Source: a virus. From it: 64,000 nt of DNA. A model generated the notes under the pieces. That model was not told the DNA's origin and ran no database searches. It was given only the letters and a program-made list of their open reading frames with translations. Every line of letters starts with the position of its first letter. Positions within the stretch are counted from its first letter, which is position 1. Both the position numbers and the translations under genes were made by a program. Below, piece after piece: positions 32,533 to 62,509 of this stretch. The stretch is from the IMG/VR virus record IMGVR_UViG_3300018018_000001, positions 64,001 through 128,000 of that record; one strand, given 5' to 3'.

Positions 32533-32561
32533 TTTTCGGCAAGTCTGCAAATAATCTTTAG
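32533..32561 (-). promoter_or_regulatory. Sigma-28-type promoter
   Basis: CTAAA-gattatttgcagactt-GCCGAAAA upstream of the SLT gene. Confidence 0.7.
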
Positions 32562-32584
32562 CTATTTATTCCAGAGTCAAATTT

Positions 32585-32959
32585 TTACTTTGGTCCCTGC
32601 AATCTGAAATTACCTCTGATGATTCTTTGCATATCAGGGGGGAGTTTAAGTCCTGATTCCTTTAGCTTTATTTCTTCCTCAACGGCTTTCATTTTTTCTA
32701 AAACTTCATTGACATTTTTCTTATAATCTATTTCTAATCTTTCAGAGACTTCCCCTTGGATTAGAGTATCATTTTCCAGAACACTCAAATTAGGGGCGAA
32801 CTTTTGATCCTTGGTTGTGGAAAATAGAGGTCTTAGAACTGTTGCCTGTGTCATAAATATTACTTCTACAGGATTAATCCAGAACAAATCCCCATTCTTT
32901 GTTTCCTCTATTTCGGTAATGATTGTTACTCCAGTTTTGAAATAGTATTGTTTAACCAT
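32585..32959 (-). CDS. Hypothetical protein (possibly Sm-like)
   Basis: FKTGVTIITEI...NPVEVI pattern; weak. Confidence 0.45.
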   Translation of the reverse strand: MVKQYYFKTGVTIITEIEETKNGDLFWINPVEVIFMTQATVLRPLFSTTKDQKFAPNLSVLENDTLIQGEVSERLEIDYKKNVNEVLEKMKAVEEEIKLKESGLKLPPDMQRIIRGNFRLQGPK

Positions 32960-32979
32960 AAAGACAAATTTCTCCTTTC

Positions 32980-33204
32980 TTATTTTATTATCCCTTTCTT
33001 TTGAACTTGCAACCGTCTAAGAGCATTTTTAACATCTTGGCTGATAAATTCTAGGGATTGACAATCATGAGATTTCAGGTAATAACTTCGGGATTTTCTC
33101 CCTATGAATCCTTGAGTGTATGTAACTACCATTCTTTGTATATTGGTCATGGTAGGTAGAGTCTTTTCCTTCTTTCCAAAAATTTCTTTAAAATGCTTAA
33201 ACAT
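32980..33204 (-). CDS. Hypothetical protein
   Basis: GGAG SD; in operon. Confidence 0.5.
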   Translation of the reverse strand: MFKHFKEIFGKKEKTLPTMTNIQRMVVTYTQGFIGRKSRSYYLKSHDCQSLEFISQDVKNALRRLQVQKKGIIK

Positions 33205-33216
33205 TGACCTGTCCTC

Positions 33217-35415
33217 CTATTTATGGGTTTTGTTTTTCTCTATTAATCCTGCTTGAATTAAAATTATGGTCCCCACCTTGCTCATTTTATCACGTGGAAA
33301 GTATTGAGAGATAAATTTCATTGTAGATCCTTTATCTTTCATTATGTCAAATCCTGCCAGGTTAGCTTTTGCCCAAACCTCATTAACCTCTTTGGCCAAT
33401 ATCATCCTCTCTCTGGCCCATTTCCAAGCTTTTTGGATCTTGGTTGCCGATTTGTTTATCAACTCATGGGAATATTCTTCCAAGAGAAGTGTTTCAAAAT
33501 TTGCAACAGTTGGATCTGAATTGTCTTCAAAGGTGTTGAGGGCTGTATTCTTTAATGCTATCATGGGAATAGAACCAGAAGCTGCCCAATGAATTTTTTC
33601 TATTTCCTCAGGTTTACAGTTATGGACTATACCGGCAGTTGTAACAAAATTATGTGTATCTTCAACATCTATGCAGTATAGTGATTTTTCTTTTTTAGGA
33701 AGAGTGGATTCAGTAACAATGGCTATATCTAATCCAGGTATTCCAAGACCAATATCATATACTTTGGGATTATATTTAGGAGCATCTTTTGTTACTTTTC
33801 TTCTCATGCAGGGAATGATATATGAACCTATTTTTTTCATTAATTCTCTTGTTCCATCTGCATTGAAAATGATAACATTTTGGGTAGTTATACTGCAACC
33901 ATTAATTCCATAATCAGATAATTTCTTTATCAAAAATTCAATTTCATCCTTGGAAAATCCCATTGTTGCTAATGTTGCGATTCTCCCCCCTGATAAACTT
34001 CCGTCATCCATGTACCAAATTGCTAACATTAAACTGGTTAATTCAATGTCTTTCGGAACCATTTTTTTACCATTTGGATACCATTTTTCTCTTAATTGAG
34101 AACACCATATGCAAGATTCTGTACTTACTTGCCATGAATTATTTGCTAGGCTTTCTCTATATTTTTGCATATCTAACTCAAATTCCGATTGAACAAATTC
34201 ATCTAATAATTTAGATTTAAGTTTGGAATAAAGAATATCAGTTTGAGAGAAACGTAATCTTCTTTCTCCTTTGGATATGGAAGCATCCCCAAGTAAGGTT
34301 CCAATAACAATTTCCATCTGTTTTTTATTAGGAGCTAATTCTCCGGTATAGACTACTCTATTGCTTAATTCACCAGCGGGAATTTCTCCTTCTGGAGTAA
34401 TCCATTTATGGTCAACAGTTGAATTAACTCCTCTATAACCCAAAGAAGTTTTAACAGAATTTTTTAATCTGACACGGCACATCTCTCTACCTTCAAGTTT
34501 TGATTTGTGCCAACCATTTACAAATCTCCACCCTAAAGATCCATCATTTAATAAAGTTGCAACCTCTATTCTTAACTTATTTTGAACAATTACACCTAGT
34601 TTTATCCATCCATTTCTTGTCAAAACTGAGGTTCTATAATCTAAACACTTATACATCCTCCAGGATGCTCCCCCGATATAAGCATATATTACCATACCTT
34701 CAGTGAAAAGTCCATCAATATTTTTTATGGACATAGATTCTCTGAAATTATTATACATTGTGGTCAGGACTTCACTTGAGAGTATGGCCTTTCCGTAAGA
34801 TCCCCCTACAGGTAATTTTGTACCACTAACCAAATTAAGCATATTTGGAGGATTAACTTCGGCATCCCATATCTTTACCCCGAATAGGAAATTAACATCC
34901 AGAGGAACAGAATACTGGATTGTTATCTGATTTCTGAAACCAAATAACTCAAAGGAAAGATTGTATTCTGGGTTTGACAGGATTAACCGCATGATCCAGG
35001 AATTTTCTTGTAGACACTCAACCCACATTTGCTTAAATGGGTTGAATTGTGAATCTTGAATAACAGGGGTTAGTCTTGTTTTGTAGGTTATGTATTTTTT
35101 ATTTTGATACCAATAGGCATATGCCAAAACATTGGTTCCATCCAGTTTGTCCCATATCCTTATCTCATGAATATCAGGCCATTGGTAAGTCCCATTTTTG
35201 TCAAAGGGATAGTGAAGCTTTGGGGTTCCATAAATGACTTGTTCACATGCTTCACCATTCACTCTAAAGATTACTAAGGCCCCATATCTGTGATCTCCCC
35301 GGTTACAAAGATATCCATAAAGCCGATTGGGGGAATTAAAGGTATCCTCTACCTCAAATTCCTTCAAGTCTTTGGGGTTATCCAGGCCAAGTAATTCAAG
35401 AGCACGATTAATCAT
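33217..35415 (-). CDS. ATP-dependent RNA ligase with an intein
   Basis: Motif I KLDGTN, III FELFG, IV EGMV, V K|CK after intein removal. Confidence 0.85.
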   Translation of the reverse strand: MINRALELLGLDNPKDLKEFEVEDTFNSPNRLYGYLCNRGDHRYGALVIFRVNGEACEQVIYGTPKLHYPFDKNGTYQWPDIHEIRIWDKLDGTNVLAYAYWYQNKKYITYKTRLTPVIQDSQFNPFKQMWVECLQENSWIMRLILSNPEYNLSFELFGFRNQITIQYSVPLDVNFLFGVKIWDAEVNPPNMLNLVSGTKLPVGGSYGKAILSSEVLTTMYNNFRESMSIKNIDGLFTEGMVIYAYIGGASWRMYKCLDYRTSVLTRNGWIKLGVIVQNKLRIEVATLLNDGSLGWRFVNGWHKSKLEGREMCRVRLKNSVKTSLGYRGVNSTVDHKWITPEGEIPAGELSNRVVYTGELAPNKKQMEIVIGTLLGDASISKGERRLRFSQTDILYSKLKSKLLDEFVQSEFELDMQKYRESLANNSWQVSTESCIWCSQLREKWYPNGKKMVPKDIELTSLMLAIWYMDDGSLSGGRIATLATMGFSKDEIEFLIKKLSDYGINGCSITTQNVIIFNADGTRELMKKIGSYIIPCMRRKVTKDAPKYNPKVYDIGLGIPGLDIAIVTESTLPKKEKSLYCIDVEDTHNFVTTAGIVHNCKPEEIEKIHWAASGSIPMIALKNTALNTFEDNSDPTVANFETLLLEEYSHELINKSATKIQKAWKWARERMILAKEVNEVWAKANLAGFDIMKDKGSTMKFISQYFPRDKMSKVGTIILIQAGLIEKNKTHK
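33619..34647 (-). mobile_element. Intein (343 aa) with LAGLIDADG endonuclease
   Basis: CLDYRTSV start, TVDH block B, TLLGDAS and WYMDDGS, ends IVHN before Cys+1. Confidence 0.93.
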
Positions 35416-35418
35416 TTG

Positions 35419-35766
35419 TTATTCCTCAAATATTGATTTGAAAACTTTCTTTATTAATTCAGCAAAATATTCTTCTGCTACTTTCCAAGTTTCTTTTCTG
35501 GTTTCCCTTGTGTATTCAAATTCCCTAACCTCAGGCCAAAATATTTCATTCTGTCCTTTCTTTTCAAAAATCTTAATTCTTGGACCATAATATCCTTGTG
35601 ATCCACGTGCTACCCAAGTCATATGGCCTTTACTGTATGCCATTAGGTAATGCTCTGTTTCGTGAATAATCTGTAAGGGAACACCAAAATCAACTCCACC
35701 TGTTGTAAAGACAGGTTTTCCCTTATCATCGTCAAATCTGGTCATTGGTAATGGTTGACTAAACAT
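35419..35766 (-). CDS. Hypothetical protein (likely start ATG 35766, not 35871)
   Basis: GAGGT SD before ATG 35766; the upstream extension falls in a long hairpin. Confidence 0.55.
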   Translation of the reverse strand: MFSQPLPMTRFDDDKGKPVFTTGGVDFGVPLQIIHETEHYLMAYSKGHMTWVARGSQGYYGPRIKIFEKKGQNEIFWPEVREFEYTRETRKETWKVAEEYFAELIKKVFKSIFEE

Positions 35767-35784
35767 TCTTACCTCATTAATACG

Positions 35785-35953
35785 GGAGCCAGGGTGTCTA
35801 AACCTCCCATAGTCTGGAATCTTGGGAATTCCCCGCACCAGAAAAGAGGTAATTCCCCGGCTCCTAACCATTAAAAGTGGGGAGCAGGATCTTGATAAAG
35901 GGATTTCAGCAAAAACTGAGTATTCTTTACTCTAAGATCCCCATCCCCTTGTA
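35785..35953 (-). ncRNA. Putative two-domain structured RNA or leader
   Basis: Nested stems 35879-35948 and 35785-35864 begin right after a sigma-28-type promoter. Confidence 0.5.
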
Positions 35954-35959
35954 ATAGTC

Positions 35960-35988
35960 TCTTCGGCAAATCTTCAGAAATAGTTTAG
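35960..35988 (-). promoter_or_regulatory. Sigma-28-type promoter
   Basis: CTAAA-ctatttctgaagattt-GCCGAAGA. Confidence 0.75.
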
Positions 35989-36279
35989 CTACTTTTTAAC
36001 AGCATCCAAAGAATTTTTATAGCAGGAGATTGTACCCTCTAACTCCTTGGAATATTTGACGATAGCATTCATATTGTCCAGGACTTGGTTGAAATTGTCC
36101 GGGTGAGCTATCGTTTTGTTCATGTCCAATGGTTTGGGTGTCGGTTTCAATGGGACTGGGCATTGGGGGATTGGACATTGCACTTGGCTTATTTTTGGGC
36201 TGCAACTCGCTAGAATTAAACCACAAAATAACGTCATTGTAAATACCCTTAGCTTCCTTTTCATAATCATATCCTCCAA
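35989..36279 (-). CDS. o-spanin (Rz1-like lipoprotein)
   Basis: KRK...LFCGLILAS-C lipobox, Pro-rich mature part, overlaps the upstream gene in another frame. Confidence 0.8.
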   Translation of the reverse strand: MEDMIMKRKLRVFTMTLFCGLILASCSPKISQVQCPIPQCPVPLKPTPKPLDMNKTIAHPDNFNQVLDNMNAIVKYSKELEGTISCYKNSLDAVKK

Positions 36280-36748
36280 AGTAGTAAGTTTCTGGCACTG
36301 GTGGGCCAGTTATTGTCCCTGTCTCAGGGGCAGGGGTTGTTTCTACAGGCTTATTTCCCTCTTGGGTAGGGGGTGTAGCCACTCCAGGGGTAGATATGAT
36401 TCCAGGGGCTGCTGGAGGCGTTGGCTTAACCACTACTCCAGGAACAGGCTTAGCACAAGTCTTTTTCAAGGCATCAATCCTATTTTGAAGATCTTGGGCC
36501 TTTTTCTCAATATCCTGAAGGTTTTGAATCTGAATCAACAAGGCATCCCGATTTTGGGTCAATTCCTGATTGACTTTCTTTTGAGCTTCCAGGCTACTTG
36601 TTAGGGTAAGTACCTGATTTTGTAACTTTACTATATCCCCTTTCTCATAAAGATGAAGGGCTCCTAAATACCCACTGGCTGCCAAGAGAAGAACAATAAT
36701 AATGTTCTTAGGATTTTTCAAAATATTGAGTATCATTGTCATCCACAT
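36017..36748 (-). CDS. i-spanin (Rz-like)
   Basis: N-terminal TM, coiled coil, long Pro/Thr linker. Confidence 0.75.
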   Translation of the reverse strand: MWMTMILNILKNPKNIIIVLLLAASGYLGALHLYEKGDIVKLQNQVLTLTSSLEAQKKVNQELTQNRDALLIQIQNLQDIEKKAQDLQNRIDALKKTCAKPVPGVVVKPTPPAAPGIISTPGVATPPTQEGNKPVETTPAPETGTITGPPVPETYYFGGYDYEKEAKGIYNDVILWFNSSELQPKNKPSAMSNPPMPSPIETDTQTIGHEQNDSSPGQFQPSPGQYECYRQIFQGVRGYNLLL

Positions 36749-36801
36749 ATCTTTTCTCCTTTACAATTATGTAAGAAAAATTACCTATTTTTTCTTACAA
36801 T

Positions 36802-39051
36802 TTATTTTGGTGATTCTGTTTTCACTATATCTTTTTGAAGAAATCTGAGTAATTCTCCCTGAAATTTTTCTACTGTGGGGAGATTAAGGCATCGGGGTTC
36901 ATGAAGTAAGCAAGTTTCCCACCACCCCTCCCCCACTACGGCATTCCAGAAACAAGGATCACAGGCCCCTGTGTGAAGAAGAATATCATTGGAATTCTTG
37001 TAGAAGAACAACTCTGGAGGAGTGCATGTTTGCCATACCATTGATGGGGTTCCTACAGAGTGAGCAAGATGATAAAGAAATCCCTCTAATCCAAAATATA
37101 AGCTGGCTCTTTTGAGCACATTGGCCGAATCCATAATGCTCAATCCTCTGAAATCAAGGTCTACATCCTTAATCAAATCATCATCTTTTGGTCCCAATTG
37201 GGCTATGGGATAAACCCCTTTGGCTATTCTTAAAATTTCACTTAGTTCTTCATCTTTGATGCATTTCAAGTTTCCTACTGTTCCTACATTATTATGGACT
37301 ACAATAAACTTTTCGGGTAAGGTATCCACGCCATTTGGCAGTTTAGTAGATTTATAATCTATATCAAAGGATAAATCTTTGATACTTGCATACTTTTCCA
37401 ATCCACAACTCTTTAACATCAAGTCAATTACGTGCATTCCAAGTTGTTTCAATCGGCAATTGGAAAAGGCCCACCCATTGTAAAATTCAATATACTTATT
37501 GGCAAATTCATTATTCTCTTCTCCATAGACTCTACTGACATATCGAACATCATAAAGAGTATCGAAAGTATGCAAAAGAGATTTCAGGACAGTGTTGTAA
37601 TGGACTCCTTTTTCCAGAGTAACATAGTCTACTAATCCAGGTTGAGTTAATAGAATCTCATCCCCCTTTTCAATGATCGCCACAACCCATGCTTTGGGAT
37701 GCTTTCTCCGGATTCCCTTTAATACAGGGATAAGCTGAAGAGTATCACCATACCCACCTAATTTGATTACCCCGATATACTTTCTTCCTTTCAATAATTT
37801 CTTGGCTTCTAAAGCCATGGTCCTAAGAGGTACATTTATTGGGGCAAAGAAATAGGGTCTAACAGGTTCCAGTTTAACTTTGGATAAATTATCTACCTCT
37901 TCTTTCAATTTCTCATAAGAGGCTTCCCAAGAATATTTCTGGACCCACTCATAAGCCGTATCTGTTATTTTCTTGGCCCTTTTCCCCTCTTTGTATTTCC
38001 AATCATCATACAAATCATTCAGAGTATTTACTATTTTTTGCTCAGAAGGGATAGCCATTTTCTGTCCTTGATCCCCTGTTATCCAAGCGGCTACATCAAT
38101 CAAACAACCTCTACCCTCAGACAAAATTTCTGTTCCTGAGGTATAATCGGTTCCTATTGCTACTATCTTTGCAGCCATGGCTTCCAGGTAGGGTAATCCT
38201 AATCCCTCACAAGAGCTATTCAGAAGAAGGGCATGAGATTGAGCATAGATTTTGGCCAATATATCATCCTTTAGAATTTTTCCTGTTCCTGAAGCATCTA
38301 CTAAGTTAATCTTTAATCTCAGGCCGGGGTAATGGGGGATTATATCCAGAAGATCATACCCCTCAGGATCACGGGCTGCGGTGACTAAATACAAAACTGT
38401 ATCATCCTTTTTCTGTGAAAATTTGTGAAATGCCTCAAGGCTTAGGGGTATCTGCTTTCTTACACAATTTTTGGATACTACCAGGACCGTAAACTTATTG
38501 GATTTTGTTTGTTCTTTTACAGCCTTGTCAAATAGATCCAAATCAACCCCATGATATATGACTTTAATATTTCCATTATCAGCATTAACTTTGGAAGGGT
38601 AATCTTTTAGAACTCTAGCTCCCCAGTAAGAAGTAGTTACAACTTTATCAAAAGAATCAAGAATTTCACAGTAAGCAAGACTCAAGGGAGAGGAATCTAT
38701 GTTAATATATCCTAAAACTTTCATTCTCTTATCCCTGTGGTCCCTTGATAGGTTATATTCATTCTTTATGGAGGGTAGGATTCCGAAATGCCAAAGATCT
38801 CCATGACAGAATAAAATATCAGGGGCTATCCTTAGAATATGGCCAGTAAGGGCATCCCTGTCTAATCGGCTACCTATTGGGTGAGTTACATAGGGTAATT
38901 TTATATCAGTTTGTTTATAATTGTATCCAGTACACTCCACATGATACCCATCCCTATGAAATCTGTTAGCCAATTCCCGACAAGTTTTTCCCATTCCCGA
39001 ATAGCTTTGAGGGGAATCAGTCACGAAAAGAATTTTAGCTTTTTTATCCAT
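36802..39051 (-). CDS. Two-domain glycosyltransferase: GT4-like plus GT9 (heptosyltransferase-like)
   Basis: SCEGLGLPYLEAMA; KLGGYGDTLQLIPVLKGIRRKHP; GLEGFLYHLAHSVGTP. Confidence 0.85.
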   Translation of the reverse strand: MDKKAKILFVTDSPQSYSGMGKTCRELANRFHRDGYHVECTGYNYKQTDIKLPYVTHPIGSRLDRDALTGHILRIAPDILFCHGDLWHFGILPSIKNEYNLSRDHRDKRMKVLGYINIDSSPLSLAYCEILDSFDKVVTTSYWGARVLKDYPSKVNADNGNIKVIYHGVDLDLFDKAVKEQTKSNKFTVLVVSKNCVRKQIPLSLEAFHKFSQKKDDTVLYLVTAARDPEGYDLLDIIPHYPGLRLKINLVDASGTGKILKDDILAKIYAQSHALLLNSSCEGLGLPYLEAMAAKIVAIGTDYTSGTEILSEGRGCLIDVAAWITGDQGQKMAIPSEQKIVNTLNDLYDDWKYKEGKRAKKITDTAYEWVQKYSWEASYEKLKEEVDNLSKVKLEPVRPYFFAPINVPLRTMALEAKKLLKGRKYIGVIKLGGYGDTLQLIPVLKGIRRKHPKAWVVAIIEKGDEILLTQPGLVDYVTLEKGVHYNTVLKSLLHTFDTLYDVRYVSRVYGEENNEFANKYIEFYNGWAFSNCRLKQLGMHVIDLMLKSCGLEKYASIKDLSFDIDYKSTKLPNGVDTLPEKFIVVHNNVGTVGNLKCIKDEELSEILRIAKGVYPIAQLGPKDDDLIKDVDLDFRGLSIMDSANVLKRASLYFGLEGFLYHLAHSVGTPSMVWQTCTPPELFFYKNSNDILLHTGACDPCFWNAVVGEGWWETCLLHEPRCLNLPTVEKFQGELLRFLQKDIVKTESPK

Positions 39052-39590: not shown

Positions 39591-39601
39591 ACTATTTCCT
39601 T

Positions 39602-40210: not shown

Positions 40211-40215
40211 AGTAG

Positions 40216-44843: not shown

Positions 44844-44844
44844 G

Positions 44845-52528: not shown

Positions 52529-52562
52529 TATAATAACACCAAAGTGCCTTTACTATTACACC
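52529..52562 (-). promoter_or_regulatory. 34-bp promoter-like motif A, copy 2
   Basis: Reverse complement ggtgtaatagtaaaggcactttggtgttattata. Confidence 0.7.
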
Positions 52563-52586: not shown

Positions 52587-52615
52587 CTAAACTTTTTCTA
52601 AACTCCAGCCGATAA
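52587..52615 (+). promoter_or_regulatory. Sigma-28-type promoter
   Basis: CTAAA-N16-GCCGATAA. Confidence 0.8.
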
Positions 52616-52661: not shown

Positions 52662-52871
52662 ATGGAAAAGAATAAGAAAATGTATGAAATTCCATGCCTT
52701 AGGTGCCAAAAAGACTTTAAATATTCAGAAGATGAGATTCCAATTCCCCACCTCTGTGAAGTATGCACCAAGTTTTTTAAGGACTTTAACAGCCAATTGA
52801 ATAAAAAGATTCATAAGATTATTCCCAAGAAAGTGACGGAAAATGTCACTCCAAAAGAGGATAAAAAATAA
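52662..52871 (+). CDS. Small zinc-finger protein
   Basis: CLRC...CEVC. Confidence 0.6.
   Translation: MEKNKKMYEIPCLRCQKDFKYSEDEIPIPHLCEVCTKFFKDFNSQLNKKIHKIIPKKVTENVTPKEDKK
52834..52848. promoter_or_regulatory. Palindromic operator-like site TGAC-N7-GTCA
   Basis: tgacggaaaatgtca, 13/15 identical to 58849-58863. Confidence 0.45.
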
Positions 52872-52900
52872 CTAAACTTTTTCTATCCTCCTGCCGATAA
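52872..52900 (+). promoter_or_regulatory. Sigma-28-type promoter
   Basis: CTAAA-N16-GCCGATAA. Confidence 0.8.
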
Positions 52901-52925: not shown

Positions 52926-53168
52926 GTGAAAAAATTTTTTATAATTCTCTTGATATTAGGATTTATTGCAAATTGGGTGTATAATCATGATTGGCATATA
53001 AGTCCTGAAAAAATTCACTATGTTGTAGTAAAAGACCAATTCACAGGAGAAGCATACTTATTAAATACGAAAACTGGAAGAGAGTATAAATTACCTAATG
53101 AAATTTATTCTGTAGACGATCTTATAGGGAATGCAATAACAAAATTTAAAATGGAAAGAACAAAATGA
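52926..53168 (+). CDS. Small protein with N-terminal TM/signal
   Basis: MKKFFIILLILGF. Confidence 0.6.
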   Translation: MKKFFIILLILGFIANWVYNHDWHISPEKIHYVVVKDQFTGEAYLLNTKTGREYKLPNEIYSVDDLIGNAITKFKMERTK

Positions 53169-53887
53169 TTTGTGAATATGGCTGTGGTCAGGAAGGTGTA
53201 TATCAACTTAAGAATGGTAAATGGTGCTGTAACCTTAGCCAAAATTCCTGCCCAGAAATAATAAAGAAATTAAGTAGAGCAGCAGAAGGAAGAAAACACT
53301 CTGTAGACACGTTAAGAAAAATGGGTGATTCCCATAGAGGAATAAAAAGACCTGATCACTCCGCTTTAATGAAACAGAAAATGTTGGGTGAAAATAACCC
53401 AAATTTTGGAAAAACAGGTAATAAAAGCCCAAGATTTGGTAAACCCGGTTATTGGAAAGGTAAAAAGAGACCGGATCTTTCTGGTGAAAATAATCCTTGG
53501 TTTGAAATAAAAAGACCTGATATTGCTGAAATAATGAAACAAAGAATTGGTGATAAACATCCTTTATTTGGTAAGACAGGAGAGCTTAGTCCAGGATGGA
53601 AAGGTGGAATTTCTAAAGATCCATACCCTATAGAGTTTAAAAGAATAAGAGGATATATCAGGGAAAAGTTTAATTATGAGTGTGTTCTATGTGGAATAAC
53701 TGAGGATAAAATTGGAAGGAAACATTCTTGTCATCATGTTGATTATGATAAGAGTAATATTTCTGAAGAAAACCTTACTTTATTATGCCAGGGGGATAAT
53801 GCTAGAGTAAATACTGATAGAGGCTTTTGGGAAACCCAATTCAAGATACTTAATGGGGTATTTGATCCTAAATTTTTAGGGCTATAA
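53165..53887 (+). CDS. HNH homing endonuclease with zinc finger and NUMOD3
   Basis: CEYGCGQ; WKGGIS; CVLCG...HHVDYDK.N...NL..LC...N. Confidence 0.88.
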   Translation: MICEYGCGQEGVYQLKNGKWCCNLSQNSCPEIIKKLSRAAEGRKHSVDTLRKMGDSHRGIKRPDHSALMKQKMLGENNPNFGKTGNKSPRFGKPGYWKGKKRPDLSGENNPWFEIKRPDIAEIMKQRIGDKHPLFGKTGELSPGWKGGISKDPYPIEFKRIRGYIREKFNYECVLCGITEDKIGRKHSCHHVDYDKSNISEENLTLLCQGDNARVNTDRGFWETQFKILNGVFDPKFLGL

Positions 53888-54355: not shown

Positions 54356-54357
54356 TC

Positions 54358-54615
54358 ATGAGATTAAAAAACCATTTCGAGAAAATGTTTGACGGTATTT
54401 ATTTAAGCTATAAATCCATATCCATAACCGATGATGGTAGACTGATTATGAAGACTGTCGGTTGCGGATGCTGCTCTGATGTGGAACCAGTGGATACGGA
54501 TAACCTCCTGAAGGCGATTACTGAAACTGAGCACTACCTGAACCATCTTAAGGAATTAAAAAACAGGATTAAGAAAAATGCCCCTCTTCCGAAATTAAAG
54601 GAGAAATATAGTTAA
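54358..54615 (+). CDS. Hypothetical protein
   Basis: GGAGG SD; GCGCC motif. Confidence 0.6.
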   Translation: MRLKNHFEKMFDGIYLSYKSISITDDGRLIMKTVGCGCCSDVEPVDTDNLLKAITETEHYLNHLKELKNRIKKNAPLPKLKEKYS

Positions 54616-54640
54616 ACTTTTTATATGTTCCCGCCGATAA
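54612..54640 (+). promoter_or_regulatory. Sigma-28-type promoter
   Basis: TTAAA-N16-GCCGATAA. Confidence 0.8.
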
Positions 54641-54741
54641 GATAATTAAAGGGAGGAATATTATGAACTTAGTAGAATTCTTTGACCCAAGAAACCTGGA
54701 CCATATTAAGGCTTACAAACATCTTTGTGATAAAGGAAAAT

Positions 54742-54924
54742 ATGGAAAGAACAAAAGGAATAAAACATAAATGGAAAAAAGAAAGAAAAATAACTAATGA
54801 AATGATTTTAAAAATCACGGAGTTAAGAAAGAATGGTAAAAAATTAAAAGAAATAAAAAATGAAACAGGAATAAATACCTGTACTATCAGCTTAATTTGC
54901 AATAAAAAATATAGATTTAGTTAA
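54742..54924 (+). CDS. Small HTH protein or endonuclease remnant
   Basis: ITELRKNGKKLKEIKNETGIN..TIS.I. Confidence 0.4.
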   Translation: MERTKGIKHKWKKERKITNEMILKITELRKNGKKLKEIKNETGINTCTISLICNKKYRFS

Positions 54925-54930
54925 AAAAGA

Positions 54931-54959
54931 CTAAACTATTTCTATATCCTTGCCGAAGA
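54931..54959 (+). promoter_or_regulatory. Sigma-28-type promoter
   Basis: CTAAA-N16-GCCGAAGA upstream of the AAA ATPase. Confidence 0.75.
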
Positions 54960-55001
54960 GATATATAAAGAGGCACTAAAAACGCAAGGAGGAAAAGGAA
55001 A

Positions 55002-56477
55002 ATGGCTTCAAAATTCAATCAATATCTTAAAGCGGGGTATCCGGCCATTTGGATTGAAACTCATGAAGAATTCAGGGCTATTGCCACCCTAGCTTTTGAG
55101 TCAAATGGATATTCGGTTTTCTCATGGGATGTAGTCACTGGCCAACGGGACCATGCCACTGATAAGTATACAAAGGAATCCCCTGAAACCCCGATGAAAG
55201 AGATTGGCCGAATTCTCCAGATGAAACCCGGTAGTGTAGTATTTCTTAAGGATTTTCCCAAGTTTTTTAACAATATTGAAGTCCTTCGTTCAATTAAAAA
55301 TCTCATTTCTGAGATTAAAGCTGATGACAGGCATATTATTTTTATCAGTCCTGCGGTAAATATCCCCATTGAATTGGAAAAGGATGTAACCGTATTGCCC
55401 TTTACCCTTCCTACCGTTGATGAATTGGTCCAGGTAGCGGAGAAGATAGTAAAAGATAACAAGTTTGATTCAGATAAATTTGATAAGAATAATAAACTGA
55501 TTTCTAAAAAAGTAGAAGTGGACCGTAAAACCATTTCAGTGGCCAAAGGGTTAACCCTACAAGAGGCCGAAAATGCAATGGCCAGATCCATAGTGGAAGA
55601 AAAGGGATTTTCCCGAAAGATCCTGGAAGAAGAAAAACTCCAGTGCATTAAGAAGTCAGGCATGATGGAACTCTTTGAACCCATGCCCGAAGCCGAATTG
55701 GTTATGGATGGATTGAAAATGTATATCCATAGGAGAGTCAAGGGTTTTGAGCCTGATTCTACTATGCCCACTCCTAAGGGAATTCTCTTGGTGGGTATTC
55801 CAGGTGGTGGGAAGTCATTGGCCTCTAAGGTTATCGCCAGTGTTCTGGGTTGCCCTCTGGTTCGTGTAGACATTGGGGCCTTAAAGGGTAGCAAGGTGGG
55901 GGAATCCGAAGCCCGTATGAGACAGTGTTTAGCCCAAATTGATGCCTTAGGATTCTGTGTAGTGTGGATGGATGAGATTGAAAAAGTCCTGAGCGGTGTT
56001 CAATCCAGTGGCCAATCGGATGCAGGGACAACCTCTACCATGTTTGGAACCCTGTTAACCTGGATGCAAGAATCAAAATTCCCCCATTACATTGTGGCCA
56101 CCTGTAATGAAATTCAAGACTTACTGGCCATTTCCCAAGGTGCCTTGTTAAGACGGTTTGATGATATCTTTTTTGTAGATCTTCCTTCTAAAGAAGAACG
56201 TGAAGAAATTATTAAGATTATGAATAAGAGATACAGCACTAAATTAAATGGAAATTTAGCGGAAAGAACTCAGGGATGGACTGGAGCAGAAATTGAAAAA
56301 TATGTTATAGCCAGTATTTATGATGGAGAAGAAGAAGCTTTCAATAATGTCCATCCAATTAGTGAACAGAACAAAGAGATCATTGAAAATGCCCGGAAAT
56401 GGTCTTTACAAAATGCACGTATCGCTAATTCAAGAAAAGTGGAAATTAAACCTGAAGGAAGAAAGATTAGAGTGTAG
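55002..56477 (+). CDS. Ycf46-like AAA+ ATPase
   Basis: GILLVGIPGGGKS, VGESE, WMDEIEK, LLRRFD..FFVDLP; degenerate N-terminal AAA domain. Confidence 0.88.
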   Translation: MASKFNQYLKAGYPAIWIETHEEFRAIATLAFESNGYSVFSWDVVTGQRDHATDKYTKESPETPMKEIGRILQMKPGSVVFLKDFPKFFNNIEVLRSIKNLISEIKADDRHIIFISPAVNIPIELEKDVTVLPFTLPTVDELVQVAEKIVKDNKFDSDKFDKNNKLISKKVEVDRKTISVAKGLTLQEAENAMARSIVEEKGFSRKILEEEKLQCIKKSGMMELFEPMPEAELVMDGLKMYIHRRVKGFEPDSTMPTPKGILLVGIPGGGKSLASKVIASVLGCPLVRVDIGALKGSKVGESEARMRQCLAQIDALGFCVVWMDEIEKVLSGVQSSGQSDAGTTSTMFGTLLTWMQESKFPHYIVATCNEIQDLLAISQGALLRRFDDIFFVDLPSKEEREEIIKIMNKRYSTKLNGNLAERTQGWTGAEIEKYVIASIYDGEEEAFNNVHPISEQNKEIIENARKWSLQNARIANSRKVEIKPEGRKIRV

Positions 56478-56486
56478 AGAATTAAT

Positions 56487-57116: not shown

Positions 57117-57117
57117 A

Positions 57118-57324
57118 ATGCCAAGGGAAGTATTAAGAGATGAAGTAGAACATGTGGAATTAGAGGTAAGTCAACTGGAGAAAGAGCGGAAAGAACTCAA
57201 TGCCGAAGCTGAATTTGAACTTGAGGTTGATTCCTTGACTTTTGAAATAGCGTGGTCCACAAATTTACCTTATGAAGAAGCCAGAAAACAGGCTCTTAAA
57301 AAATTAATGAGTAAGGGGGTTTAA
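57118..57324 (+). CDS. Hypothetical protein
   Basis: GGAGG SD. Confidence 0.6.
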   Translation: MPREVLRDEVEHVELEVSQLEKERKELNAEAEFELEVDSLTFEIAWSTNLPYEEARKQALKKLMSKGV

Positions 57325-57335
57325 GAGGAAGTAAC

Positions 57336-57518
57336 ATGGAGGCAATATATATTTATGTAAGTACGTTGTTCTTTATTTTTGCCGGATTCGTGGTTAAGTG
57401 GTCTGCAGGATGGGGGAATACGTTTGTAAGGTTTATCGCAATCCTGCTGGCTATCTCAGGGATAGTCTTATCCTTGGCTAAACTGGGGTTTATGCTTCCC
57501 CCTCTGATACATCCATAA
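57336..57518 (+). CDS. Small two-TM membrane protein
   Basis: Hydrophobic helices. Confidence 0.55.
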   Translation: MEAIYIYVSTLFFIFAGFVVKWSAGWGNTFVRFIAILLAISGIVLSLAKLGFMLPPLIHP

Positions 57519-57532
57519 GGAGAAAAATCACT

Positions 57533-57880
57533 ATGAAATTTGCAAGTCCAGAACAATACCTTACCGCAGGATGCCTTTTCTTGGTGGGAGAAAAAAAGAA
57601 CCAAACAATATTCAATGGTCTTCATGAAAATACAAATGGAAGTATCTGTGAGACTGGTTGCGCCTACATTGATAAATGCCAGGCTTATAGGATTCTTTCC
57701 TCAAGGCTCACTGAAACCCCTGAGGAAAAGAAAATACCCATGCCTACCAATGCCCAGATAGCCGCTAAGCTGGGGGTAACAAAAAGGCAGGTGTCCAAGA
57801 TGAGAATCAAAGGAACTCTTAAGGCTGAAATCCTTAAGAGGGGTTTGGAAAACGAATTTAGTAATCTATCACTGATTTAG
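57533..57880 (+). CDS. Protein with C-terminal HTH
   Basis: TNAQIAAKLGVTKRQVSKMR. Confidence 0.6.
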   Translation: MKFASPEQYLTAGCLFLVGEKKNQTIFNGLHENTNGSICETGCAYIDKCQAYRILSSRLTETPEEKKIPMPTNAQIAAKLGVTKRQVSKMRIKGTLKAEILKRGLENEFSNLSLI

Positions 57881-58010
57881 TGGATTCTCAGGAATACCTA
57901 GAAGGTGAGAAAACGGGATGGGAACCGGAGACCCAGAATAACTACTCGAAGGGCTGATTCCCGTATCTGTAGGTCCTTTATCCCTGTGATTTCCTATTAG
58001 AGGGTAGAAT

Positions 58011-58091
58011 GATAAGGTAGCCCAGTGGGGAAGGGCAGCAGACTGTAAATTTGTGGCTTCGGCTGTGTAGGTTCAAATCCTACCCTTATCA
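58011..58091 (+). tRNA. trnY: tRNA-Tyr (GTA), CCA not encoded
   Basis: Acceptor GATAAGG/CCTTATC, D stem GCCC/GGGC, anticodon loop CTGTAAA, long variable arm, T arm GTAGG-TTCAAAT-CCTAC. Confidence 0.92.
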
Positions 58092-58108
58092 TTCTGCTCT
58101 TTATTTAA

Positions 58109-58123
58109 TGACATTTTATGTCA
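58109..58123. promoter_or_regulatory. Palindromic operator-like site
   Basis: tgacattttatgtca, the exact reverse complement of 58849-58863. Confidence 0.65.
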
Positions 58124-58137
58124 CCATTAAAAAATAA

Positions 58138-58165
58138 CTAAACTTTTTCCAGGAATAGCCGATAA
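58138..58165 (+). promoter_or_regulatory. Sigma-28-type promoter
   Basis: CTAAA-N15-GCCGATAA. Confidence 0.8.
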
Positions 58166-58203
58166 GATATTTAGAGGCAAGAAAATAACAAGGAGGTAAG
58201 AGA

Positions 58204-58353
58204 GTGAAGATTGTTAAACCCATCGGATACTTTGAGGACCATCGGCAGAAGAAGTTATTTCTGTTAGACAAAGCCACTTTAACCTTGACTCAGGTTCAGG
58301 AAACCATGTTTAAAAAGTGGAAGGCCATAATTGAGCAAAGGATGGAAAGGTAG
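58204..58353 (+). CDS. 49-aa protein (missing from the ORF track)
   Basis: AGGAGG SD, GTG start, VKIVKPIGYFEDH... Confidence 0.55.
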   Translation: MKIVKPIGYFEDHRQKKLFLLDKATLTLTQVQETMFKKWKAIIEQRMER

Positions 58354-58357
58354 GAAT

Positions 58358-58870
58358 TTGAAAGAGATTCCTCTAATCCCATTAGTCCCTGAAATGGGCA
58401 ACCAAAAAGCGATTGTTGACGATGAGGATTATGATCGTCTTATAAAATACAAGTGGTATTTGAATGCTCAGGGATACGCAGTCCGGTATATTGAGAAGGA
58501 TGGGAAGCGGGTCTACATCCGTATGCACAGGGAAATCTTTAATACCCCTGAAGGTTTGGATACTGACCATAAAGAGAGGAATAATAGGACAGACAACAGG
58601 AAGGAAAATCTGAGGTCATGTACCCGTGGGGATAATTCAAAAAATTCTAACCCTTGGAGTACTGACAGTAAATTTTGCTCTATTTATAAGGGAGTTACCT
58701 GGCATAATAGGAAAAAACATCCTTGGGTAGCAAGGATTAGGGTTAATAGGAAATATATTCATCTTGGGGTATTCAAAACAGAGATTGAGGCTGCTTTAGC
58801 CTATAATGAGGCAGCCAGGAAGTATTTTAAAGAGTTTGCCTACCAAAATGACATAAAATGTCAACCTTAA
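58358..58870 (+). CDS. HNH-AP2 homing endonuclease
   Basis: MHREIF...TDH..N.TDNRKENLR; YKGV.W...W.A.I......LG.F.TE.EAA.AYN. Confidence 0.92.
   Translation: MKEIPLIPLVPEMGNQKAIVDDEDYDRLIKYKWYLNAQGYAVRYIEKDGKRVYIRMHREIFNTPEGLDTDHKERNNRTDNRKENLRSCTRGDNSKNSNPWSTDSKFCSIYKGVTWHNRKKHPWVARIRVNRKYIHLGVFKTEIEAALAYNEAARKYFKEFAYQNDIKCQP
58849..58863. promoter_or_regulatory. Palindromic operator-like site
   Basis: tgacataaaatgtca, 13 bp upstream of CTAAA. Confidence 0.65.
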
Positions 58871-58876
58871 AAATAA

Positions 58877-58904
58877 CTAAACTTTTTCTAACTTCTGTCG
58901 ATAA
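58877..58904 (+). promoter_or_regulatory. Sigma-28-type promoter
   Basis: CTAAA-N15-GTCGATAA. Confidence 0.75.
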
Positions 58905-58949
58905 GATCTATAGAAGTAAGCAAAATAAAAGACAAAGGAGGGTACTACA

Positions 58950-59312
58950 ATTTCTCATACAATGAACATCAGAACTGAGATAAGGGACCGGATAGCTCTT
59001 GAAGCTGCCTGTAAGGAATTGGGCATCAAGATCCTTGAAGGTAATAGCCACCATCTTTATGGTGGAACTGAATATGGAATTGGCCTTAAAATCCCTGGCT
59101 GGAATTACCCGGTAGTAGTCAAGGATAATGGGACCTTGGCCTTTGACGATTATAAAGGGTCTTGGGGTAACAAGCAGGACCTTACCAAACTTATGGCCTA
59201 TTATGGCCTTGAGAAGTCTAAGGCTGAAGCTGAGGATCAGGGTTACACAGTAGAGGAAAGTTATAATTCCCAAACTCAAGAATTAGAACTTGAAATCACA
59301 GTGGAGGAATAA
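58950..59312 (+). CDS. DUF1257 (Ycf35-like) protein; probable ATT start at 58950
   Basis: (M)SHTMNIRTEIRDRIALEAACKELG; AGGAGGG SD 7 nt before ATT. Confidence 0.75.
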   Translation: MSHTMNIRTEIRDRIALEAACKELGIKILEGNSHHLYGGTEYGIGLKIPGWNYPVVVKDNGTLAFDDYKGSWGNKQDLTKLMAYYGLEKSKAEAEDQGYTVEESYNSQTQELELEITVEE

Positions 59313-59314
59313 TC

Positions 59315-59521
59315 ATGTCTAAAAAAATCAAAATGAGATTTGATCTGAGAACGGGAGAAATAAAGGTGGAAGCAGAAGGATTTATAGGCCCTTCTTGCCA
59401 AAAGGCCACTGAATTTCTTAAAAATACCCTTGGGGAAGTAACCGATTTTACCCAAAAATCGGAATGGTTCGAAGAAAACCTTCAGTTATCTGGCTGTATT
59501 GATACTGATCTTTGTGGGTAA
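59315..59521 (+). CDS. DUF2997-like protein
   Basis: GEIKVEAEGFIGPSCQKATEFL...LG. Confidence 0.8.
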   Translation: MSKKIKMRFDLRTGEIKVEAEGFIGPSCQKATEFLKNTLGEVTDFTQKSEWFEENLQLSGCIDTDLCG

Positions 59522-59524
59522 GAT

Positions 59525-60148
59525 ATGAATATTTGTGATCATGGTTGCGGACAAGAAGCTAAGTATTATTCTCAACAAACTAAAAAATGGCGTTGTAGTA
59601 AATGGCCTAGCTCTTGCCCAGAACTTAGAAGAAAAGATAGTGAGTCCCATAAAAAGCCTAAACCAGATCTTAAATTATGTGAATGTGGCTGTGGGAATTT
59701 TGCTAAGCCGGGTAAGAGATTTATACATTGGCATCATACAAGAGGAAAGAAAAGACTTGACTTGGCTGGCAAAAAAAGACCAGATCATTCTATCAAAATG
59801 ACAGGTGAAGGAAATCCAAGGTTTGGCCAACCTGGTTATTGGAGAGATAAAAATAGGCCAGAATTTTCTGGTGAAAATCATCCTAATTGGCAAGGTGGCG
59901 TCTCTTTTGAACCTTATTCTCCTAAATTTAATAAACAATTTAAGACTATAATAAGAGAAAGAGATAATTACACTTGTCAACTATGTGGAGAATATGGAAA
60001 CTTTGTTCACCACATAGATTACAACAAGGAAAATACCAATCCTAATAATGCATTAACTTTATGCAATCCCGATAATTCTAAGGTAAATTTCAATAGGGAC
60101 CAGTGGGAAACTTATTTTAGGCTTTATTTATTGATAAAAAAGAACTAA
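59525..60148 (+). CDS. HNH homing endonuclease with two zinc-finger modules
   Basis: CDHGCGQ, CECGCG, WQGGVS, CQLCG...HHIDYNK..N...LC..N. Confidence 0.88.
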   Translation: MNICDHGCGQEAKYYSQQTKKWRCSKWPSSCPELRRKDSESHKKPKPDLKLCECGCGNFAKPGKRFIHWHHTRGKKRLDLAGKKRPDHSIKMTGEGNPRFGQPGYWRDKNRPEFSGENHPNWQGGVSFEPYSPKFNKQFKTIIRERDNYTCQLCGEYGNFVHHIDYNKENTNPNNALTLCNPDNSKVNFNRDQWETYFRLYLLIKKN

Positions 60149-60172
60149 AGTTTTTTAAAAAACTGACGATAA
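60145..60172 (+). promoter_or_regulatory. Sigma-28-type promoter
   Basis: CTAAAGTTT-N11-GACGATAA. Confidence 0.75.
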
Positions 60173-60199
60173 GATATATAAACAAAAGGAGGAAACAAA

Positions 60200-61060
60200 A
60201 TGGAAACTAACATGCAGGAAAGGGTACTTGTTGTAAGACTACATATTAGTAGATGGTGTCCCTGGGGTTACGATCAAAAAAAGGCTGCAGAGGTAGCTAC
60301 CCAAGAGGGTTCCAAGAAGGAAGATACCCATGTTACCAAGCGGAAAATCAGCAAAGATGCCCTGAAGGATATCAATGATTTGCTGAATCAGGCTTATACC
60401 TATCATATCAGTGTCACGATGCCCTCAGGTGCTGATGGAGATCGGCTGATTACTACCGACCTCTACACCGAATATTGCACCAAGATGAATGAGTTTGAAA
60501 CCAAGATACCGGCAGCTTTGGATAAATTCCTTTCTGAATATCCCACGTGGAAAGAAGAAGCCAGGACCCGCCTCCAGGGATTATTCAAGGAAACCGATTA
60601 TCCCTCAGTGGAAGAAGTCAAGAAGAAATTTTCTATCCGCTATTCTTTCCTGCCTCTCCCCTCAGTCAATAACATTGTGGTCAAGTTAGTCAACGGGGAT
60701 TTGGCCAACGTCCGTAAGAACGTGGAAGAGGAAATGTCTAAGATGTCCGAAATCGCCATGAAAAGCCTGTGGGACAAAACCTATGATGCAGTGGCTCACA
60801 TGGCAGAGATCCTTGGTTCTGATGCCCGTTTACACAAGTCCATGCTGGACAACATGAATGGTCTTTGTAATGTCCTGAAGTCCCTGAATTTCACCAACAA
60901 CCCTGAATTGGAAGAGATGAGGTTAAAGATTTCAGTCCGTTTGGTTGGCCTTGACCCCAATGACCTTCGTAAATCCAGGAGTGTTAGAGAGGAGGTGGCC
61001 CGGGAAGCCAAGTCAATAGCTTTGGAAATATCACAGAAACGTATGATTCGCCTTGAGTAG
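60200..61060 (+). CDS. DUF3150-like protein
   Basis: FLSEYP...EAR.RL.GLF..DYPS..EV.KKF pattern. Confidence 0.6.
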   Translation: METNMQERVLVVRLHISRWCPWGYDQKKAAEVATQEGSKKEDTHVTKRKISKDALKDINDLLNQAYTYHISVTMPSGADGDRLITTDLYTEYCTKMNEFETKIPAALDKFLSEYPTWKEEARTRLQGLFKETDYPSVEEVKKKFSIRYSFLPLPSVNNIVVKLVNGDLANVRKNVEEEMSKMSEIAMKSLWDKTYDAVAHMAEILGSDARLHKSMLDNMNGLCNVLKSLNFTNNPELEEMRLKISVRLVGLDPNDLRKSRSVREEVAREAKSIALEISQKRMIRLE

Positions 61061-61367
61061 TTTACTGAGTATGGGGAGGGGCCTCCAGAGGTCTCTCAAG
61101 AGGGTATCCCCTTCAGTACCAAAGGATTTGCCCCTCCCCATTTTTTTAGACCAATTTAAAGATGCATTCGATAGGGAGGAACACCTTGTTTCGGCTATTA
61201 AGCAATACCTCAGGACAGAAGAACAGAGGAAATGGCTTTATGATCATGATCTTTCAATTGAGGATTGTTTGAATGGAAGGTATCCTGGGGATCTTGAAGA
61301 AGAAGTGGCTGAGGTTTTATATAAACCCTGGAATGAGATTTTAGGATTTCGTGAGTTTGGATCTTAA
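61053..61367 (+). CDS. Hypothetical protein
   Basis: In-operon ORF; start uncertain. Confidence 0.45.
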   Translation: MSSLLSMGRGLQRSLKRVSPSVPKDLPLPIFLDQFKDAFDREEHLVSAIKQYLRTEEQRKWLYDHDLSIEDCLNGRYPGDLEEEVAEVLYKPWNEILGFREFGS

Positions 61368-61369
61368 CA

Positions 61370-61567
61370 ATGTTTTCTTATATTTTTTATATATCTCTTG
61401 GAATAATTCTTATACTGGGAGTAATAGTTATTCCGATTTATGTGAATTTGTCTGAGTCTATTAAAGAAGAGTTAGAAAAGTTAGTTAAAACATCAGAGAG
61501 GATTAAAAATATTCCAAAAGAGGTTACAAAAAATCCAAAGATAGATCGTAAGATCAGATTGGACTAA
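61370..61567 (+). CDS. Small membrane protein
   Basis: N-terminal TM. Confidence 0.5.
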   Translation: MFSYIFYISLGIILILGVIVIPIYVNLSESIKEELEKLVKTSERIKNIPKEVTKNPKIDRKIRLD

Positions 61568-61580
61568 AAAGGAGAATGAA

Positions 61581-61874
61581 ATGGCAAAGAGACCCACTTT
61601 GAAAGACAAAATTGAGGAAGTCAAGAAACTGAAGGAAATGAAACCTCATGTGCTCAGGCAGAGTATATTTGGGGATGACCATCATGCCGCTATTGACGCC
61701 CAGATTGAAGTCATAGATGAATACATGGGACAGGATGACATTGAAGATAGATTCAGTGGTGAGCCAGAAAATGTTTACACAGCGGCTATGGATGCAGCCA
61801 TATGGTTAGAGGGGGAAGAGATAGACGATTTTACAACCCCATCCGAATCCTGGAAAGAACTGGTGAGGATATGA
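61581..61874 (+). CDS. Hypothetical acidic protein
   Basis: GGAG SD. Confidence 0.6.
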   Translation: MAKRPTLKDKIEEVKKLKEMKPHVLRQSIFGDDHHAAIDAQIEVIDEYMGQDDIEDRFSGEPENVYTAAMDAAIWLEGEEIDDFTTPSESWKELVRI

Positions 61875-62116
61875 TAACAAATGCATTTCGACTTCAACCG
61901 CAAGAAACACCAGGAGGGATTGAAGATGTTATTATATTTATTATCATGTGGTTTATTTTTGTTGCAATATATCTTCTCCCGACCATTGTTTCTGTCATAA
62001 GAAAACACAGGAACATGACCGCTATCTTTATCCTGAATGTCTTACTTGGTTGGACATTCTTTGGGTGGGTAGTTGCTCTTATTTGGTCAGTATTTAAAGA
62101 AAAACCAAAAGATTAA
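61871..62116 (+). CDS. imm: Superinfection immunity protein (T4 Imm-like)
   Basis: YLLPTIVS.IRKH.N..AIFILN.LLGWT..GW..AL.WS. Confidence 0.88.
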   Translation: MITNAFRLQPQETPGGIEDVIIFIIMWFIFVAIYLLPTIVSVIRKHRNMTAIFILNVLLGWTFFGWVVALIWSVFKEKPKD

Positions 62117-62484
62117 TGATAACACTAAATGAAGCTATAAAGCTTTTGAATAAATATGCACCTTTGGGAACCCCGGAAGAGATTGAGAGGGCCATATACA
62201 AAGCGGAAGAGATTATAGGTGAATATAAATCTTTGTGATCTCCTGAGGAAATACAGGAAGCTTTGGAAGGGGCTAGTAATCTTCTTGAAAGATATAAGAC
62301 TTTTGGAACCCCTGATGAGATTGAAGAGGCTTTTGATTTGGCCAAACAAGCCCTTGGGGATTTAAAAAGCTTGGATGGATATTTAAAGAGTCAGGGGATA
62401 CAGACCCCAAGAGATCCAGTTATTCCCAAGACTGCCAAGGAAGTAATTGAAATGATTTCTAAAAGAAAGATCATTTTAGACTAA
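62116..62484 (+). pseudogene. Three-repeat (Y..LG.P.EI) protein with an in-frame TGA
   Basis: YAPLGTPEEI / YKSL*SPEEI / YKTFGTPDEI; TGA 62236-62238 sits where GGA is expected. Confidence 0.7.
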
Positions 62485-62509
62485 ACTTTTTTTGTCTTTC
62501 TGCCGATAA
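62481..62509 (+). promoter_or_regulatory. Sigma-28-type promoter
   Basis: CTAAA-N16-GCCGATAA. Confidence 0.8.

Follow-up and report, generated by a model that had tools for sequence, protein, structure and literature searches.

Ten promoter-like sites of the flagellar sigma-28 (FliA/SigD) type lie in a 64-kb stretch of viral DNA, here called the window, and raise the question of which sigma factor reads them. The window is bases 64001 to 128000 of IMGVR_UViG_3300018018_000001, a complete IMG/VR virus record of 181,621 bp (genome G000) with a terminal repeat of 123 bp and a G+C content of 36.5%. A first-pass annotation had described the sites as promoters of the phage's non-structural genes, read either by host FliA or by a phage-encoded sigma-28 mimic outside the window. 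It had proposed a position weight matrix (PWM) scan of the whole genome for intergenic enrichment, a scan of relatives, and a search of the rest of the genome for a sigma70 region 2/4 gene. A search for TAAA-N15/16-GHCGAWRA gave 10 matches in the window, where 0.1 was expected by chance (dinucleotide-preserving shuffles, 0.10 +/- 0.33; maximum, 2). All ten were at the places first described, although the start coordinates given there were off by one where the leading C had been counted. Five of the ten have the exact -10 element GCCGATAA, and there were no matches in window positions 1 to 32000, the virion block; both points agree with the earlier description. We conclude that the ten sites are probably genuine promoters among a regulon of 21 sites and are most likely read by a phage FliA-family sigma on host core RNA polymerase. 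Which sigma reads the sites, and when, is what we infer from sequence.

A two-block PWM was built from the regex matches, and both strands of G000 were scanned with it. Scores across the whole genome were bimodal: 21 sites scored 36.7 to 52.2 bits, and the next candidate scored 9.5. Shuffled genomes gave only ~10 matches even at a threshold of 0. The intergenic enrichment that had been anticipated was clear, with 18 of the 21 sites intergenic versus 6.5% of the genome by crude gene calls (P = 4e-19). The remaining three lie in a doubtful antisense open reading frame (ORF) of 53 amino acids (aa), at a mis-called start just past the DNA polymerase gene, and in the final 190 nt of a gene. Twenty of the 21 sites aim at the next gene; the exception is an orphan described below.

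Aligned, the sites have an A-rich tract, C-TAAA-C-TTTTT, ~10 variable bases, and GCCGA(T/A)(A/G)A-GA-(T/C)A-n-n-(T/C)-A, with the consensus A-rich tract, CTAAACTTTTT, N10, GCCGAWRA, GA, N5, A(+1). TAAA and the -10 bases C, G, and A (positions -13, -12, and -11) are present in all 21 sites, and the distance between TAAA and the G takes two values, 16 nt (17 sites) and 15 nt (4 sites). The -10 element of the E. coli sigma-28 initiation complex reads C-13 G-12 A-11 T-10 A-9 A-8 N-7, and mutation of C-13 and G-12 abolishes activity (Shi et al., bioRxiv 10.1101/2020.01.02.893370). Every site also has an A eight bases past the octamer, the predicted +1 in sigma-28 numbering, and a pyrimidine precedes that A in 20 of the 21. 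A start codon with a Shine-Dalgarno (SD) sequence follows 19 to 46 nt past the -10 element at most sites; leaders are 60 to 210 nt long at a few. As a positive control, the same regex recovered the genuine fliC sigma-28 promoter of E. coli K-12. That promoter scored below 0 on the G000 PWM including its flanks. Hence, the phage sites are of the sigma-28 type with extra fixed positions (CTAAAC, -7G, -6A, and +1A), and these positions fit a dedicated reader.

A phage sigma factor of the FliA family as candidate reader

The search for a sigma gene outside the window found one, and it is of the kind that had been postulated. A 247-aa FliA/WhiG-family gene lies at genome positions 28570 to 29313, 35 kb upstream of the window, and is the sole sigma70-family match in G000. 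Sigma regions 2, 3, and 4 (PF04542, PF04539, and PF04545) all scored above cutoffs, giving a group 3 architecture without region 1.1. The best family was TIGR02479 (FliA_WhiG), at 174.1 bits versus 74 for SigB/F/G and 57 for RpoD, and the best solved relatives were sigma-28 proteins, including the E. coli FliA initiation complex (6pmi; 1e-27). We compared residues with those of E. coli FliA and eight bacterial FliAs. The FliA core is kept (T69, R74, R76, D81, R84, R91, R94, R220, and Q223), and every invariant column of the family is retained, including the contact residues T69, R74, R84, R94, and R220. At contact positions R58 and R98 the phage protein has K, and at Q63 it has R (the bacterial majority). 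Searches of G000 for RNA polymerase beta and beta' domains and for a FlgM homolog found none. With no polymerase gene found in the phage, the sigma is taken to act on the host core enzyme.

Among 5.8 billion proteins, there were two orthologs of this sigma, with 68% and 57% identity, both on phage-like contigs; next, after a gap, came bacterial FliAs with at most 40% identity. These nearest bacterial FliAs are spread over many phyla, and the sigma gave no pointer to the host. The closest sigma among catalogued phages was 35% identical. The best "phage" matches were considered as other phage FliAs and rejected, as at least one of them, MT835847, proved to be a fla/che operon of a bacterium catalogued under the label of bacteriophage. 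That record (MT835847.1, "Bacteriophage sp.") encodes FlhB, FlhA, FlhF, CheB, CheA, CheW, and others, followed by SigD. Comparable short entries of the same study could lead searches for phage sigmas astray.

We favor the phage sigma as the reader for two reasons: it is encoded by this very phage, and the 21 sites have fixed positions in common that the bacterial consensus lacks. Several observations weigh against this assignment. The TIGR02479 score of 174.1 bits is under the NCBIfam curated cutoff of 189.6. Some contact residues differ from those of E. coli FliA (H26T, R34S, Q73R, R95D, and K208T); H26, Q73, and R95 vary in bacterial FliAs too, whereas most of those proteins have a basic residue at R34 and K208. 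No promoter of its own could be recognized for the sigma gene, and a promoter scan of its surroundings was at chance level. Lastly, complete viral genomes without any sigma gene hold three to five sites of the same type, which means that a phage sigma is not required for use of such promoters.

This last point bears on the possibility that host FliA alone reads the sites in G000. The accessory program would then be tied to a motile, FlgM-exported host, and the phage sigma would have another job, for example, at virion genes. The core consensus is indeed indistinguishable from that of bacterial sigma-28 promoters, as the recovery of E. coli fliC by the regex illustrates. When a general probe, TAAASTTT-N11/12-GCCGATAAGA, was run on IMG/VR, 43 stretches matched; many were contigs unrelated to G000, with 28% to 59% G+C and several sites each, often right before an SD sequence and start. 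A FliA-family gene was absent from ten probe-matched records, three of them rated 100% complete, and Sigma70_r2 was absent from all five tested. Two of the genomes with several near-perfect sites were compared with a reversed-pattern control, which gave 0 to 2 matches: G010 (L065/L097; complete, 57.6 kb) has ~5 good sites and G009 (L083/L096; 86% complete, 81 kb) has 5 perfect ones. G004 and G002 likewise have such sites and no sigma gene. Nevertheless, we consider exclusive reading by host FliA unlikely for G000, which has its own FliA-type sigma with a retained DNA-reading core, has no other promoter class resembling a sigma-28 variant that this sigma could serve, and shares fixed positions beyond the bacterial consensus at all 21 sites. 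Of the two readers first offered, the phage sigma has thus gained support from the gene itself, and host FliA, if the host has one, may act at least as an additional reader. A quite different reading is that the repeats are recombination or mobility sequences of gene cassettes, such as the ends of homing-endonuclease units. Some sites do move with HNH cassettes, and the orphan at genome position 57657 was left after an endonuclease replacement (see below). However, the sites have a bipartite design with a spacer that is fixed in length and variable in sequence, their orientation follows the next gene, the SD sequence and start codon lie within the 19- to 46-nt range at most of them, they match a known promoter class down to +1, and most head non-mobile genes. 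We regard the mobility reading as highly improbable.

Sites of this type are found well beyond G000. Three to five near-perfect TAAAGTTT-N11/12-GCCGATAA sites occur, without a sigma gene, in G010, G009, G004 (L080), G002 (L072), L059, L087, and L086. The sigma-28-type promoters of phages that lack a sigma gene are probably read by host FliA. Together, these records suggest that uncultured phages often have promoters of this type, whether or not they encode a sigma, and standard phage annotation overlooks them.

Genes at the sites and conservation in relatives

Eight sites lie at 116.6 to 126.5 kb of the genome and ten at 154.4 to 178.4 kb. The two small-gene regions concerned (116.6 to 128 kb and 154.4 to 181 kb), which together span 21% of the genome, contain these 18 of the 21 sites (P = 6e-10). 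Most of their genes are small and have no known relatives; alongside these are an AAA+ ATPase, HNH endonucleases, a tRNA nucleotidyltransferase, and tRNA-Tyr. Two minus-strand sites head an SLT-domain gene (PF01464) and a 150-aa gene. Among the gene labels of the first-pass annotation, AAA ATPase and SLT were confirmed, but neither Pfam nor PHROGs bore out "histone-like" or "RNA ligase." No functional site was found in the virion region (genome 31 to 93 kb; sheath, fibers, and prohead protease), and none was found in the replication/recombination module (genome 128 to 154 kb; SbcCD, SSB, a UvsX-like recombinase, helicase, primase, and polymerase). No flagellar genes were found downstream of the sites. 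The proposed regulon would comprise the two clusters of small accessory genes, the AAA+ ATPase, the SLT transglycosylase, and homing-endonuclease cassettes. The virion genes and the replication module would fall outside it, which agrees with the earlier description of the sites as promoters of non-structural genes. A separate five-copy element would serve the genes for replication and nucleotide metabolism. The coordinates of both kinds of element are given in Table 1.

Table 1. Sigma-28-type promoters and second-class elements (window positions unless marked as genome positions)
Feature	Position	Strand	Sequence	Context
Sigma-28-type promoter	32533..32560	-	-10 GCCGAAAA	46 nt before SLT transglycosylase gene 32486-31827
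Sigma-28-type promoter	35960..35987	-	-10 GCCGAAGA	~88-nt leader, then 150-aa gene 35871-35419
Sigma-28-type promoter	52588..52615	+	GCCGATAA	First promoter of the plus-strand small-gene block; predicted +1 = 52623
Sigma-28-type promoter	52873..52900	+	GCCGATAA	Top PWM score, 52.2 bits
Sigma-28-type promoter	54613..54640	+	GCCGATAA	Small ORF next
Sigma-28-type promoter	54932..54959	+	GCCGAAGA	42 nt before AAA+ ATPase gene 55002-56477
Sigma-28-type promoter	58139..58165	+	GCCGATAA; spacer 15 nt	Directly past tRNA-Tyr 58010-58092; upstream of HNH gene 58331-58870
Sigma-28-type promoter	58878..58904	+	GTCGATAA; spacer 15 nt	Upstream of 116-aa gene 58962-59312
Sigma-28-type promoter	60146..60172	+	TAAAGTTT / GACGATAA	27 nt before 286-aa gene 60200-61060
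Sigma-28-type promoter	62482..62509	+	GCCGATAA	19 nt before 62-aa gene 62529-62717
Second-class element	52530..52562	-	GGTGTAATAGTAAAGGCACTTTGGTGTTATTAT; extended -10 TGTTATTAT	Heads the minus-strand ribonucleotide reductase (RNR) operon
Second-class element	23076..23108	+		Ahead of 625-aa exonuclease-like gene 23152-25029
Second-class elements	Genome 21995, 129354, 133851	+		The set of 5 heads the RNR operon, SbcCD/replication genes, and an HNH gene

The relatives that we compared are partial contigs; L048, for example, covers 21 kb of a contig of 40.7 kb. Synteny between L048 and the window extends across the RNR operon, the divergent small-gene block, and the AAA ATPase (67% identity). L048 has five clean intergenic sites, each right before an SD sequence and ATG, and one degenerate site before the ATPase gene. 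These sites have the -35 element TTAAAGTTT and the -10 element GCCGATAA-GATA, as in G000. L011 carries the sigma ortholog with 68% identity and one perfect G000-type site, and L016 has an ortholog of the G000 orphan site. The motif is thus conserved in the relatives, and the presence of sites in L048, L011, and L016 indicates that the regulon is a property of the lineage. A megablast search of 6.9 kb against catalogued phages gave no match, IMG/VR searched with the sigma and with the AAA ATPase gave no relatives, and the strict G000-type motif had no match in IMG/VR. In metagenomes, the strict motif gave 34 single matches, and L016 was the sole close relative.

The orphan site is in the virion block, 6.3 kb ahead of the window, at genome position 57657 on the minus strand (genome 57609-57684), and it now points, antisense, into an endonuclease gene of the plus strand. 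Its ortholog in L016 (1224-1300), a nearly identical fragment, is upstream of a 203-aa HNH gene. G000 has a different plus-strand endonuclease in place of that gene, and only the promoter and ~24 nt are left. The survival of this site after endonuclease replacement indicates that some promoters travel with mobile cassettes. Comparison of L016 with G000 further points to a turnover of homing endonucleases at a single site in two closely related genomes.

The second promoter-like class consists of five nearly identical ~45-nt copies (AAAAGGTGTAATAGTAAAGGCACTTTGGTGTTATTATATAG) with an extended -10 element and a direct repeat, GGTGTwATwrTA, at a spacing of 22 nt. The copy that heads the RNR operon stands back to back with the sigma-28-type promoter at 52588..52615, and L048 has a related sequence, TGATATTATAT, upstream of its RNR operon. 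Canonical sigma-70 promoters (>=10/12 matches) numbered 77 in the whole genome versus 140 in a shuffled genome, and only 8 of them were intergenic. No promoter class for the virion genes was found in G000. T4-style late transcription was considered and rejected: TATAAATA occurred 30 times versus ~37 expected, nearly always in coding sequence. No homologs of gp55, gp45, gp44/62, or gp43 were found in G000.

A palindrome, GTGACA-N5-TGTCAC, has four exact copies versus 0 in the control, at window 52833-52849 and genome 172250, 178321, and 25817; three of them lie 20 to 40 nt upstream of a sigma-28-type -35 element. The copy in the window (GTGACGGAAAATGTCAC) precedes the promoter at 52873..52900, which heads an 80-aa gene (52926) and an HNH gene (53165-53887). 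Weaker copies occur near window 58100 and 58850, and the palindrome is also present in L048, at ~3585 and ~9880. The palindrome could be an operator or a terminator of the preceding unit.

Two neighboring genes deserve a brief description. The AAA+ ATPase (window 55002-56477 onwards) is accompanied by a DUF2997 gene in phages (L048 12398-12592) and on a bacterial chromosome with 57% G+C (contig L050); it has >2000 homologs, many of them on contigs binned as archaea or Deltaproteobacteria. Window 33217-35415, on the minus strand, encodes a 732-aa protein with a LAGLIDADG homing-endonuclease domain at residues 364-543, and this domain may be an intein inside a host protein of unknown family.

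An N-terminal leader and possible capsid delivery

The G000 sigma begins with MDKSQNILKLLEE and its orthologs begin with MSKSQNMLKLMEE and MSKSKNIIKLAEE; the N-termini of bacterial FliAs are unrelated. Because this leader precedes region 2.1, its removal would spare the fold. A leader of the form M-x-K-[AS]-x-x-[ILFM]-[ILV]-x-[LF]-[LIV]-E is common to at least 23 proteins, most of them small and in other respects unrelated, for example, those at genome 62897 and 65897 (window 1897). A search with the pattern M-x(0-2)-K-[AST]-x(2-3)-[hydrophobic x2]-x-[hydrophobic]-x-E matched 25 of 3369 candidate starts, and 23 of the matches lie on the plus strand at genome 6.6 to 66 kb (in the window, up to ~2240; P = 2e-16). 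All 23 start with ATG, nearly all have an SD sequence, and the sigma is one of them. Another is an EncFtn-like ferritin (genome 51204-51494), of a class that in bacteria is cargo of HK97-fold shells. A head protease gene of the T4 gp21 type (Peptidase_S77, PF03420; 33.8 bits versus a cutoff of 27) is present at genome 57817-59403. Judged from these genes, the leader set looks like a large capsid-cargo system of the type that uses the T4 capsid targeting sequence (CTS). In T4, a 10-residue N-terminal CTS suffices to load any protein into the head, gp21 cuts after the Glu, and the cargo enters the next host (PMC9026906, PMC3012670). Both ends of the T4 protein Alt are trimmed, and its target is host RNA polymerase (PMC9026906, PMC3012670).

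We tentatively raise the possibility that the FliA-type sigma is capsid cargo that is ejected with the DNA and fires the 21 promoters as an immediate-early program. On this view, synthesis of the sigma and of some two dozen other leader-tagged proteins would fall late in infection; the targeting peptide would direct the sigma into the prohead, where the gp21-type protease would cut the peptide off, and the sigma would leave the capsid together with the DNA. It would then seize the core RNA polymerase of the new host as soon as it arrived, with no need for host sigma-70, host FliA, or new protein synthesis. Several features agree with this scenario: the sigma gene lies, without a promoter, among cargo genes, canonical sigma-70 promoters are not enriched, and the leader and the protease are present. 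If true, capsid delivery would be a new route by which a phage without a polymerase seizes host transcription at entry.

A sigma made de novo after infection, serving a middle or late class as SPO1 gp28 and phiEco32 gp36 do and carrying a leader with no role in packaging, is a serious possibility and at least as likely as an injected one. De novo synthesis is the mode known for all well-studied phage sigmas that use host RNA polymerase, and one of the sites heads the SLT gene, which is possibly related to lysis. Against de novo synthesis, the sigma gene sits in the cargo/virion block without a promoter of its own, and no part of the genome has an excess of canonical sigma-70 promoters. Moreover, the genes headed by the sites look early (small, unknown, and hypervariable), and the sigma and its orthologs retain a leader that bacterial FliAs lack.

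Comparison with known systems

The redirection of host polymerase by a phage sigma is in itself known. In the literature, we found no paper on a phage FliA-type sigma or a phage regulon of the sigma-28 type; the first-pass annotation likewise knew of no described phage built on such a regulon. In G000, a host alternative sigma and its promoter code would have been adopted, nearly unchanged, for an accessory program of 21 promoters. The sigma/promoter pair is testable and should be orthogonal to sigma-70. It also raises the questions of whether the phage cross-activates or titrates the flagellar regulon of its host and whether host FlgM restrains the phage sigma.

The promoters of E. coli and Salmonella FliA and of B. 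subtilis SigD have the same TAAA(G/C)TTT, the same 11- to 12-nt gap, the same GCCGATAA, and the same essential C-13/G-12, and bacterial FliA shares with the G000 sigma its three domains and the invariant DNA-contact core. Unlike bacterial sigma-28 promoters, those of G000 have an additional fixed -7G, -6A, and +1A. The G000 sigma differs from bacterial FliA in its identity of at most 40%, its new N-terminal leader, its C-terminal extension of ~20 aa, and its score below the NCBIfam cutoff. Unlike the bacterial class 3 flagellar regulon, the G000 regulon consists of phage genes, with no flagellar gene and no FlgM.

The leader of G000 differs in sequence from that of T4, MKTYQEFIAE; it has at least 23 bearers, one of them a sigma, whose packaging and cleavage are predicted. 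The two systems have in common a short N-terminal leader on unrelated proteins, a hydrophobic-x-Glu end, and a gp21-type protease (PMC9026906, PMC3012670). Experimental precedent for a sigma in a phage particle comes from Salmonella phage Arash, whose Gp10, a sigma factor, was detected in virions by mass spectrometry (PMC10585845). Arash packages its own RNA polymerase beta and beta' subunits (PMC10585845), whereas G000 has no RNA polymerase genes, so an injected G000 sigma would need the host core. The Arash sigma was absent among the listed phage matches to the G000 sigma. According to a recent review, sigma homologs are frequent in jumbo phages that lack a polymerase of their own (PMC13282480).

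As we infer for G000, SPO1 gp28 and gp33/34, T4 gp55, and phiEco32 gp36 combine a phage sigma with the host core for a private set of promoters. Known phage sigmas recognize sequences peculiar to the phage and serve middle or late genes. In contrast, the consensus of the G000 promoters is that of a host alternative sigma, unaltered, and the accessory genes that they head look early.

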